DNA of 63,678 nt, filler included, from Acidimicrobiia bacterium (GCA_041619515.1; 3 parts of 3 records of this genome joined end to end with filler, not necessarily neighbours in it), one strand, 5' to 3'. Numbered from the whole stretch's first letter, positions 22,016 through 46,854 are shown. Numbers and translations are program-made. The notes: generated by a model not told the origin, from the letters alone.

Positions 22016-22115
22016 NNNNNNNNNNNNNNNNNNNNNNNNNNNNNNNNNNNNNNNNNNNNTTAATTAATTAANNNNNNNNNNNNNNNNNNNNNNNNNNNNN
22101 NNNNNNNNNNNNNNN
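22016..22115. other. Artificial contig spacer (Ns plus TTAATTAATTAA at 22060-22071)
   Basis: 100-nt block with a linker that has stops in all six frames; identical to the block at 43925-44024. Confidence 0.98.
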
Positions 22116-43924: not shown

Positions 43925-44024
43925 NNNNNNNNNNNNNNNNNNNNNNNNNNNNNNNNNNNNNNNNNNNNTTAATTAATTAANNNNNNNNNNNNNNNNNNNN
44001 NNNNNNNNNNNNNNNNNNNNNNNN
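43925..44024. other. Artificial contig spacer (Ns plus TTAATTAATTAA at 43969-43980)
   Basis: Same layout as 22016-22115. Confidence 0.98.
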
Positions 44025-44100
44025 CTCCCCCTCCGGGGGAGGAGAGTGGTGGTGGTTCTCTCCCCCCGGAGGGGGGAGTCCGGCGTAGCCGGGAGGGGGG
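44025..44100. repeat. REP-like GC-rich palindromic elements in inverted orientation
   Basis: CTCCCCC-TCC-GGGGGAG (44025-44041), CTCCCCCC-GGA-GGGGGGAG (44060-44078), then CCGGC-GTA-GCCGG; sits at the contig end, downstream of the IDH pair. Confidence 0.65.
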
Positions 44101-44197
44101 CAGCCCTTCGGGCTGCTTGGCAGTTGCTGCGCAACTGCAGGCATGGGTTACGGCCGCCCTGCGGGCAACTGCAGGCGTGGGCTCTGGGGACGGGAGA

Positions 44198-45202
44198 TCA
44201 GAGCTGGGCGATGATGGCGTCTGTCATCTCGGAGGTGGTGGCGGTTCCGCCGAGGTCGGCGGTGACGGTTTCGCCGGCGACGGTGACCGCCTCGATGGCG
44301 GCTGCGATGCGCTCGGCGGCGGGGCGCTCGTCGATGAAGTGGAGCAGGTCGACGACCGGGGTCAGCAGCGGAAGGGGATTGGCAACGCCCTTGCCGACGA
44401 GATCGGCGGCATCGCCATGAACGGCCTCGTAGATGCGGACGTCGTCACCAATGTCGATCCCGAGGCTCGACGAGATGCCTCCCGTGAGCCCGTTGCACAG
44501 GCTGGAGAGGACATCGCCGTACAGGTTGCCCATCAACAGCACGTCGAATTGATAGGGGTCCAGCACCAGCTGCATGCAGGCGGCATCGACGATCACGGTG
44601 CGAAGCGGGATCTGCGGATAATCGGCGGCGACTTCCCGAACCGTGTCCAGGAACAGGCCGTCGGACTTCTTCATGATGTTGGCCTTGTGGATGAAGCTGA
44701 GGTGTTTGCGATCCAGGTGGAGCATCGTCTCGAAGGCAAACCGGGCGATGCGCTCGGAAGCCTCCCGGGTCACCACCTTGATCGATTCGATCACGCCGGG
44801 CACGATCTCGTGCTCGATCCCCTTGTAGATGTCCTCGCTGTTCTCGCGGATGATGATGAGGTCGAGGTCGGGGAAGCGCCACGACACTCCGGGGAGGCTG
44901 CGAATCGAACGCACCCCGGCGAACAGCTCCAGCCGGCGTCGGAGTAGCACGTTGAGGTTGTTGGAGACGTCGGTGGGGCCACCGGGGGGCGTGAGCAGCC
45001 GTGTCTTGAGGGCGAGGCCCACCGCCCGGGCTGCCGAGGCGGCCTCTTCGAGCTGGGCGACCGCACCGGGGTAGTCCGGGGCGTTGACGTCGATCCGGTT
45101 CCAGCGGATCGTGACGCCGGCGGCCTCGATCACCCGGAGCACCTCGGGCGTGATCTCTTGATTGATGCCGCCTCCGACGATGAGAGCGATCTCGCGGCTC
45201 AC
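44198..45202 (-). CDS. Isocitrate/isopropylmalate dehydrogenase family protein, degenerate copy B
   Basis: RENSEDIY, HKANIM, NLYGDVLSS, EAVHGDAAD. Confidence 0.88.
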   Translation of the reverse strand: MSREIALIVGGGINQEITPEVLRVIEAAGVTIRWNRIDVNAPDYPGAVAQLEEAASAARAVGLALKTRLLTPPGGPTDVSNNLNVLLRRRLELFAGVRSIRSLPGVSWRFPDLDLIIIRENSEDIYKGIEHEIVPGVIESIKVVTREASERIARFAFETMLHLDRKHLSFIHKANIMKKSDGLFLDTVREVAADYPQIPLRTVIVDAACMQLVLDPYQFDVLLMGNLYGDVLSSLCNGLTGGISSSLGIDIGDDVRIYEAVHGDAADLVGKGVANPLPLLTPVVDLLHFIDERPAAERIAAAIEAVTVAGETVTADLGGTATTSEMTDAIIAQL

Positions 45203-46203
45203 AGCGCCTCCAGCAGCGCAACGGTGAGCTCTTCGGTGGTCGCCGAACCCCCGAGATCGCCGGTGAGGACGGAGCCGTCGGCGAGGACCCGCTCCACGGC
45301 GGCTCGCAGCCGTTTGGCCGCGTCTCGCTCACCGATGTGGAGCAACATGAGCTCGGCGGACAGGATGAGCGCCAGCGGGTTGGCGATTCCGCGTCCGGCG
45401 ATGTCGGGTGCGGTGCCATGCACTGCCTCGAACAGCGCGAACTGCTTCCCGATGTTGGCGCCCGGCACCATGCCGAGCCCGCCGACCAGGCCTGCGCACA
45501 TGTCGCTCACCACGTCGCCGTCCAGGTTGCCGAGGACGATGGTCTCGAACTGGTGGGGGTCGAGCGCCAGCTCCATCACCAGGTTGTCGAGCCCGATGTA
45601 CTCGACCTCGGTGAACGGATAGTCCTCGGCGACGCTGCGGGCGGTGTCCAGAAACAGCCCGTCGGACAGTGGCATGATCGACTTCTTGTGCGAAACGGTC
45701 ACCTTGCGGCGCCCGTTGGCCCTGGCGTATTCGAATGCGTAGCGAATGATGCGTTCGGAGGCTTTGCGGGTGACGATCTTGAGGGCCTCGACCACACCCG
45801 GCACCGCCTCGTGCTCACGACCCGAATAGAGGCCCTCGGTGTTCTCGCGCACCACGACCACGTCTACGTTCTCATACCGCGACCTGGTGTGGCCCGGCAG
45901 CGACTTGACGGGTCGCAGCGAGACGTAGAGGTCGAGCGCCTGGCGGATCGACACGTTGACCGACCGCCAGCCACCGCCGATCGGTGTCTGCAGCGGCCCC
46001 TTGATACCCACCCGATTGTGGCGGATCGATTGGATGGTCGCAGCCGGCAGCGGGCTGTGCCCGGCGTCGACGGCAGCGCTTCCGGCGAGCTGCTCGTCCC
46101 ATTCGATTGCGCCGCCGGTCACGGCGTCGACGACCCGCACCATGGCGCCGGAGACCTCGGGCCCGATGCCGTCGCCGGGGATGAGCGTTACCTTCACGGC
46201 CAC
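45199..46203 (-). CDS. NAD-dependent isocitrate dehydrogenase family protein, copy A
   Basis: PGDGIGPE, KGPLQTP, SVNVSIR, RENTEGLY, GDVVSD, EAVHGTAPDIAG. Confidence 0.9.
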   Translation of the reverse strand: MAVKVTLIPGDGIGPEVSGAMVRVVDAVTGGAIEWDEQLAGSAAVDAGHSPLPAATIQSIRHNRVGIKGPLQTPIGGGWRSVNVSIRQALDLYVSLRPVKSLPGHTRSRYENVDVVVVRENTEGLYSGREHEAVPGVVEALKIVTRKASERIIRYAFEYARANGRRKVTVSHKKSIMPLSDGLFLDTARSVAEDYPFTEVEYIGLDNLVMELALDPHQFETIVLGNLDGDVVSDMCAGLVGGLGMVPGANIGKQFALFEAVHGTAPDIAGRGIANPLALILSAELMLLHIGERDAAKRLRAAVERVLADGSVLTGDLGGSATTEELTVALLEAL

Positions 46204-46242
46204 GATTATGGCGGGAGCGCCGGCAGTCCGCGGCTTTCGGCC

Positions 46243-46854
46243 CTACCGGCCGTGCACGCTCTGCCGGCGGAATCGGGTGGCGCGGGTCACCGCCCCCTGC
46301 AGCTCGTTGCTGCGAACCTTGCGGGGCACCTGGCCGTCGGCCCGCTCCAGAGCTTCCTGGTTCAAAGAACGGGCTGCCAGCCTGGTGAGGGTCTTGACCC
46401 GCTCGATGTCCTTGCGGTCGACCGCGTCGTTGAGCGCGATCGTCAGGCCCGCCGTGCGAACCCGCTCGCTGCGCACCCACAGCTCGGCGACCCGGTGTGC
46501 GTCGAGATCCTCCGCCGAGGCAGACCGATGGAAAGCGGAGAAATCCTCATCCCGCAGGGGGAGGAAGCCTCGCAGCCACAGGTCTGCCGTCCGGCGCCCG
46601 GCGGCGATGGCGGGCGTCACGTCCACGTCCTGGCCATCCGGAGGCAACAGCAGGTGAAGGGGAGACACACCCAGCACGGCCGCCATCGCCAGGGCATCGT
46701 TCAGCAATACCGTTGCCGGCGTGTCGGGCGTGTAGTCGGACGCTTCGAGCAGCTTGAGCAAGTCGTCGTGCTCCAGGCCCCGCGCTTCGAGCAGGGCGTT
46801 GAGGTTGGCGTTGAACACATCCTCCATGCTGAGCGGCTCCCGGTCTTGTCCCAT
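46243..46854 (-). CDS. Hypothetical protein with degenerate XRE-like N-terminus
   Basis: FNANLNALLEARGL...LAMAAVLGVSPLHLLLP; follows bcp by 2 nt. Confidence 0.65.
   Translation of the reverse strand: MGQDREPLSMEDVFNANLNALLEARGLEHDDLLKLLEASDYTPDTPATVLLNDALAMAAVLGVSPLHLLLPPDGQDVDVTPAIAAGRRTADLWLRGFLPLRDEDFSAFHRSASAEDLDAHRVAELWVRSERVRTAGLTIALNDAVDRKDIERVKTLTRLAARSLNQEALERADGQVPRKVRSNELQGAVTRATRFRRQSVHGR

Follow-up and report, generated by a model that had tools for sequence, protein, structure and literature searches.

The window analysed here, a stretch of 63,678 nucleotides from an Acidimicrobiia bacterium (GCA_041619515.1), is made up of three contigs with N linkers between them. A pair of isocitrate dehydrogenase (IDH)-like genes lies on the minus strand, wholly within one of these contigs. 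The upstream gene encodes subunit A (45199..46203, the putative catalytic, IDH3-like subunit), and the downstream gene encodes subunit B (44198..45202, its IDH3-like putative partner). Both are intact ORFs of 334 codons without an internal stop, encoding two 37-kDa proteins; they lie where the preliminary description had placed them, and every motif quoted there was found. The TGA stop of A and the GTG start of B overlap in the tetranucleotide GTGA (45199..45202, minus strand), as described before and read again from the sequence. This overlap, also present at 7/7 loci of genus g1, would couple the translation of the two genes; other lineages have other A-B junctions. A conserved CATAAT (46205..46210, minus strand), probably a -10 box, was seen in 8/9 aligned loci and is missing from the genus-g2 locus. 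Because it lies 7 nt ahead of the second GTG of A, and the first GTG is not conserved, the true start of A is probably the second GTG at 46197, which suggests a leaderless start.

Directly upstream of A, on the same strand, is an ORF of 203 aa (46246-46854, minus strand) with no NCBIfam or Pfam match; related loci have a similar-sized ORF at this place, preceded by a bcp-type peroxiredoxin gene. On the other side, B ends about 170 nt from the end of its contig. This short region holds two 17-nt direct repeats, 34 nt apart (44131-44181), and a GC-rich inverted repeat with 19-bp arms (44027..44075), which is terminator-like or a repeat element; the direct repeats and the hairpin may together form a repeat element at which the assembly broke off. 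The two joins in the window (22016-22115 and 43925-44024) are N runs around a short AT linker, and ORFs running into them are join artefacts.

A and B are paralogues with 42% identity. Their best profile matches are the IDH3-like models TIGR00175 and PRK08997, with 380 and 390 bits for A and 323 and 290 bits for B, all under the curated cut-offs (TIGR00175 432.4; PRK08997 510). The best PDB matches are 6LKY (349 bits for A, with 6LTF/6M3S next), which we take to be a Methylococcus capsulatus-type NAD-IDH, as we do 6LTF/6M3S, and human IDH3 alpha; a look-up in the ESM Atlas gave PF00180 clusters only. Profiles, PDB matches and tree placement group both proteins with subfamily III, at scores that do not reach the curated cut-offs. 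This subfamily is described, in the portions of these papers that deal with it, as mitochondrial hetero-oligomers plus bacterial homo-oligomers (PMC4360740, PMC8333347, PMC7480870, PMC9548406), and the bacterial enzyme as homo-tetrameric (PMC4360740). The preliminary description had called characterised bacterial IDHs generally homo-oligomers or monomers, and full-text literature searches, at the level of titles and the starts of abstracts, with subscription journals and bioRxiv supplements outside their coverage, found no bacterial heteromeric IDH. Subunit A resembles the homotetrameric subfamily III enzymes in length, NAD-type Asp267 and isocitrate motif, and its best structure match is the one of that group named above. 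The pair differs from them in that they are made by one gene, each subunit having cis and trans residues in one polypeptide; A is without N175, and B is without S82, D234 and T264. Homoisocitrate and isopropylmalate dehydrogenases (3ASJ, 1WPW; LeuB) are likewise PF00180 proteins forming shared-site dimers, but they score lower, and the S-x-N isocitrate motif, which A retains, is absent from them. The host genome (95.65% complete) also encodes an E. coli-type IDH with an NADP-type HGTAPKY motif and a separate LeuB-like gene.

The preliminary description assigned S113/N115/R119/R129/R153/Y160/D307/D311 to one subunit (cis) and K230/N232/D283 to the partner (trans), in what is presumably the E. 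coli numbering. Residue numbers used here are those of subunit A, nearly equal to those of human IDH3 alpha. According to section 9 of PMC9731866, human alpha supplies T74, S82, N84, R88, R98, R119, Y126, D230, D234, G264, T265, D268 and N276, its Asp268 sets NAD use, and K184, N186 and D217 of a partner complete the active site, such that alpha alone cannot catalyse. As a test of site completeness we used the 16 isocitrate, metal and NAD residues of the human IDH3 pseudo-Michaelis complex, as far as that paper describes it (PMC9731866). In the window, A has an intact cis set (T73, S81, N83, R87, R97, R119, Y126, D230, D234, G263, T264, D267 and N275) and keeps the catalytic trans residues K173 and D206, and its trans surface is altered (N175 to S, K178 to P and I204 to G). 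B has an intact trans set (K173, N175, K178, I204 and D206). In its own site it retains N84, R88, R98, R119, Y126 and D230 and is without S82 (N), D234 (S), T264, the GDGIGPE loop and the HG[TS]APD pocket (HGDAAD), with R68 where lone homologues have P. The window pair builds a complete 16-residue site from A-cis plus B-trans only.

This pattern recurs far beyond the window. Loci were classed by gene order, not by motif. This gave 96 A-B pairs, reduced to 82 when B was collapsed at 90% identity, and 80 lone homologues flanked on each side by 1.3 kb or more, reduced by collapsing to 67. Not included were 76 entries that were partial or at a contig edge, 3 B-type loci standing alone, and L001, L012-L034, L111, L144, L146-L148, L239 and L268. 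Among the 82 non-redundant pairs, a complete site is built by A-cis/B-trans in 79, by B-cis/A-trans in 0, by B-B in 0 and by A-A in 4, a comparison in which the features of B are partly built in, since the searches used B-type queries, and those of A are not. As far as residues can indicate, the claim that only an A/B heterodimer would build a full canonical site is thereby borne out. Lone homologues have the complete site in 59/67 (the 8 misses are not itemised by residue). N175 is kept in 67/67 lone proteins, 82/82 B and only 4/82 A (5/96 before collapsing), where S, D, A, T and others replace it. S81 is kept in 67/67 lone, 82/82 A and 22/82 B proteins, and T/S264 in 65/67, 81/82 and 5/82, respectively. 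Two further positions, noticed post hoc, are I204 (lone 67/67, A 0/82, B 82/82) and K178 (lone 67/67, A 22/82, B 82/82). Of 123 positions that lone genes conserve, an unbiased scan picked out 8 that A has lost and B retains, 7 of them at 175-178 and 204-213 on the small-domain face, and 26 with the opposite pattern, mostly in the large-domain loops 11-16, 69-81, 243-249 and 256-278. As an in-phylum control, N175, I204 and S81 are canonical in 40/40 lone Myxococcota homologues, and no gene without N175 was found among the 80 + 40 lone loci. Two proteins, P0093 and P0320, look like A/B chimeras and were not counted as evidence. The reciprocal decay proposed earlier recurs in 82 pairs from four phyla, which exceeds what chance or drift would give, but it is selective: A keeps K173 and D206, and B keeps much of its cis site.

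On these residues, A and B very probably form an obligate heteromeric NAD-isocitrate dehydrogenase with one catalytic site. We infer physical binding as well as the use of NAD and isocitrate; the assembly would be an AB dimer, probably arranged as (AB)2. Its catalytic site would combine the large domain of A, holding isocitrate, metal and NAD, with the small domain of B, supplying K173, N175 and D206. A structure prediction, suggested earlier as a check, gave the A+B complex model a score of 0.92, the best of 3 controls reaching 0.00; the mark applied to such models is reached by 116/157 solved pairs and 2/215 mismatched pairs. At least 96% of the contacts are shared between runs, the partner pLDDT is at least 91, and the modelled interface involves 173-180 and 205-214 of each chain. 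This result speaks for compatibility and likeness only, because like complexes have been solved and the model covered A-B, not A-A or B-B. Linkage of the two proteins is also seen in sequence comparisons. A-A and B-B distances correlate (Spearman 0.69, among kin that are not independent), and a search for longer proteins found both domains in 2/50 matches, P0430 and P0429. The first is an in-frame A-linker-B fusion of 712 aa (P0430/P0480), possibly from one lineage, since the second full-length record is 99.6% identical to P0430; the second, P0429, was discounted as a single record whose linker resembles a translated repeat. B is under purifying selection: against eight family members, its dN/dS is 0.10-0.23 (8/8 comparisons) and that of A 0.06-0.17, with dS near saturation.

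Within the Acidimicrobiia family of the window, 12 of 14 genomes carry adjacent genes in the order A then B (two of them cut by contig ends); of the other two, one has neither gene and the other has only part of B, where its contig ends. Other families of the order gave no close match in 27 genomes (including the unpublished G028), and among 251 genomes sampled from the class the pair is confined to the 2 that belong to the family. Beyond the class, the pair occurs in 10/301 Acidobacteriota genomes, a set centred on the carrier G042 and including the unpublished G069. Among 201 Myxococcota genomes (the phylum of G346) there are at least 39 tandem pairs among the matches listed, and all 39 that were fetched hold two IDH genes, with B frameshifted in one (L239). 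A further large group lies on metagenome contigs labelled Gemmataceae or Planctomycetales by their sources, where B loci of the Gemmataceae type with at least 1.3 kb upstream have an adjacent A in 29/33 cases and none in 4/33. As for neighbours, no pathway gene conserved beside the pair across phyla was found among the 71 flanking ORFs scanned. A gene for a TPP-dependent enzyme lies directly upstream at L036:376-1947, L037:363-1913, L042:300-1859 and L112:3620-4006; it is limited to these 4 Thermoanaerobaculia-type loci and is not seen in other lineages. Immediately upstream of the pair in L109, the opposite strand carries a T4 gp19-like tail-tube gene (L109:2087-2515).

A parallel with yeast and human IDH3 had been drawn, and a phylogeny against IDH3 subunits was named as one way of checking it. 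In a tree of 50 rows (LG+C20+F+G4, active-site columns removed; some eukaryotic rows named, the remainder assigned by motif and tree), a single clade (100/98), which excludes A and B, unites the catalytic and regulatory subunits of eukaryotes. A forms a clade of its own (94/97), and B with related degenerate proteins forms another (83/85, or 90/92 once one early row is taken out). Grouping B with the eukaryotic regulatory subunits was rejected by the tree and by an AU test (p-AU 0.0049, active-site columns removed), and so was their shared ancestry; the likeness to IDH3 is thus convergence. The parallel accordingly stands for the split of roles in residues and falls for descent. A fast tree of 245 rows puts A (84/84) in one clade (97) and B (83/84) in another (96), with weak backbone support; B of pair L230 falls outside the B clade. 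That A and B are sisters from one tandem duplication is unsupported, the two being placed among different lone homologues, weakly, in the 245-row tree. The closest relatives of the window family's A and B are Thermoanaerobaculia pairs (100/99 for both), which, with the absence of the pair from the rest of the class, suggests joint transfer of A and B. By these trees, A and B are one old bacterial pair, independent of mitochondria.

The same searches met other IDH-like proteins. P0433, P0434, P0450, P0475 and P0477 have IDH3-like domains fused to other enzyme domains in precomputed Pfam assignments: PF01916, presumably deoxyhypusine synthase; PF00330/PF00694 (a 21-member cluster), presumably aconitase; and PF00056/PF02866, presumably malate/lactate dehydrogenase. 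A separate IDH-like subfamily with NQYGD and an altered substrate loop is represented by L146:1816-2859 (minus-strand count), P0184, P0187, P0191, P0192 and P0202.

The pair is not the cell's only IDH: 62/65 carriers have another one (38 E. coli-type, 22 monomeric and 2 type II), and two of the three carriers without it are 72-79% complete. Thus the pair would be dispensable for the TCA step. A second IDH is not special to carriers either, as 49/62 genomes with a lone canonical homologue also hold another IDH (type II not being part of that search). Since carriers and lone-homologue genomes are alike in this respect, the pair appears to be an NAD-type companion of the second IDH that replaces a homomeric one. 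Judging from the motifs of A, its substrate would be isocitrate, and the companion role is consistent with a regulatory need.

Such regulation could act at the second site, formed by the large domain of B and the small domain of A. In the heterodimer, K173 and D206 of A face this site only, and both are kept in 82/82 A. From the other side, among B proteins that average 49% identity, R87, R119 and Y126 are kept in 82/82, R97 and D230 in 80/82, and D234 in 65/82. The gamma-carboxylate/NAD set is lacking (T73, S81, T264 and D267 of B; N175 of A). Passages of PMC5241874 describe Asn78 of human gamma as binding citrate and Mg, and its citrate site as using Ser91 together with Asn175 of alpha. The position of Asn78, mapped through motif alignment, is position 70 of B, which is R/K in 55/82 B and in 80/81 of the window's own B subgroup. 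The window pair does not match the human citrate/ADP (or AMP) site (gamma T81, S91, N93, R97, R128 and Y135; alpha K173 and N175): its B keeps T, N, R, R and Y and has N in place of S91, and its A keeps K173 and is without N175. Because the equivalents of S91 and alpha N175 are lost, the ligand or its pose must differ from that in the human gamma site. The relay triad K142/D181/Y228, described in part of the human IDH3 work (PMC5241874), shows no variation in the B subgroup of the window (81/81), while the window's A carries a change in it (Y228D). This change was considered and rejected as inactivating, as the host's own E. coli-type IDH has N at this position, which among the A subunits of different lineages is Y, F or D. 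In the same B subgroup, D234 is lost in 80/81 and R97 in 20/81; the pocket is thus partly dispensable.

The kept residues suggest that the second site is an effector pocket for a carboxylic acid, and we put the heteromer with one catalytic site and an effector role for the other at somewhat better than an even chance. This mirror site would have no productive NAD binding or canonical gamma-carboxylate recognition and would keep a basic carboxylate/metal pocket, most likely binding an effector such as isocitrate, citrate or a related carboxylic acid. Its binding would be relayed by the clasp and helix alpha-7 and in this way tune the catalytic site.

The strongest alternative, although it is unlikely, is an obligate heteromer in which B is structural only, like human IDH3 beta, and the second site is vestigial after reciprocal loss without regulatory gain. 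It accords with the high variability of the large-domain loops of B (10-16, 68-81 and 264-269), with human beta, whose pseudo-allosteric site cannot bind activators in the wild type according to the relevant part of PMC9731866, and with genus g2. In the B subunits of that genus (L010, L011 and L012), R97 and D230 are gone and S81 remains, which is the eukaryotic regulatory pattern and unlike the window's genus. On the other hand, the residues of B and A that are invariant in 82/82 remain so while their flanks drift, and R97/D230 are kept in nearly all B although they can be lost without loss of the fold, as in 9/9 eukaryotic regulatory subunits.

We regard it as improbable that A is an active homo-oligomer into which B exchanges as a facultative modulator, whether activator or inhibitor. 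The A homodimer could have residual activity, because with K173 and D206 kept in 82/82 it retains the full catalytic triad; the cis residues are kept in 81-82/82, a few A keep N175, and some B genes do not adjoin A. However, the trans surface that all lone proteins keep at N175, K178 and I204 (67/67) is lost in A, none of the 80 + 40 lone loci surveyed is without N175, and a fixed 1:1 stoichiometry is suggested by the overlap of the A and B genes and the existence of a fusion.

Two further alternatives have only a slight probability each. First, the heteromer may have two chemistries, with NAD-independent beta-decarboxylation of oxalosuccinate or oxaloacetate at the second site; IDH can decarboxylate oxalosuccinate without coenzyme. 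Retention of K173 and D206 in A and of Y126 and D230 in B (80-82/82), together with D234 in most B, would fit such a reaction, and eukaryotic regulatory subunits, by contrast, have lost D230 and D234 in 9/9 each. Yet the window's own B has S for D234, its subgroup is almost uniformly without that residue, and genus g2 is without D230 too. Second, at a comparably low level, B may act independently on a different substrate or with a different cofactor, or the pair may oxidise something other than isocitrate. The presence of another IDH in nearly all carriers, scores under the curated IDH cut-offs for both proteins and the TPP enzyme upstream at the 4 loci mentioned would agree with this. But the nucleotide pocket of B is variable and not remodelled to a new constant form, an independent B leaves the matched trans-surface loss of A unexplained, and A has the isocitrate-type T73/S81/N83 in 82/82. 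Moreover, no conserved pathway gene stands beside the pair, and genomes with lone homologues likewise have another IDH. Decay of B into a pseudogene after a recent duplication, a possibility raised at the outset, or an artefact of assembly is practically negligible as an explanation: B evolves faster than A and 1/39 Myxococcota B genes is frameshifted, but dozens of genomes from four phyla carry an intact B, its dN/dS is far below 1 and its trans surface invariant, and it forms its own old clade.

The preferred reading, a heteromer with one catalytic site, invites comparison with eukaryotic IDH3. Both systems belong to the same fold family, with paralogues about 42% identical. In IDH3, one catalytic and one degenerate subunit share an active site, the partner supplying Lys, Asn and Asp, and A and B would do likewise. 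Drift of the trans surface in the catalytic subunit (I204 and K178) is common to both; I204 is kept in 8/9 eukaryotic regulatory and 0/4 eukaryotic catalytic subunits. They differ in the residues retained: bacterial B keeps R97/D230 and loses S81, whereas eukaryotic regulatory subunits do the reverse (R97, D230 and D234 each lost in 9/9), and bacterial A loses the N175 that human alpha uses in the citrate site. In addition, the bacterial pair is of separate origin and is encoded as a two-gene operon or a fusion. By its residues, A/B would work like eukaryotic IDH3, and it is not a member by descent.

Tentatively, and with slightly less than even confidence, we propose that the pair is an old mobile two-gene module encoding an allosteric heteromeric NAD-IDH independent of mitochondria. 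Its effector pocket would differ from the eukaryotic one, with Arg/Lys in place of the citrate-Mg Asn and with R97 and D230 kept. Living lineages would represent transition stages, from near-canonical B subunits to B converged on the eukaryotic losses, and the second site might perform NAD-independent chemistry in some of them.

The catalytic-plus-regulatory NAD-IDH is treated, in the relevant parts of PMC7480870, PMC8333347, PMC4360740 and PMC9548406, as something that eukaryotes devised out of a bacterial homomer. If our reading is true, many of the Myxococcota, Acidobacteriota, Planctomycetota and Acidimicrobiia proteins annotated as isocitrate or isopropylmalate dehydrogenases probably do not work as enzymes by themselves. 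A second, independent bacterial origin would also be a natural replicate, with the same split, the same trans-surface drift and a graded series of partners. Such a replicate would allow one to ask whether heteromers of this kind arise for regulation or from neutral mutual dependence.
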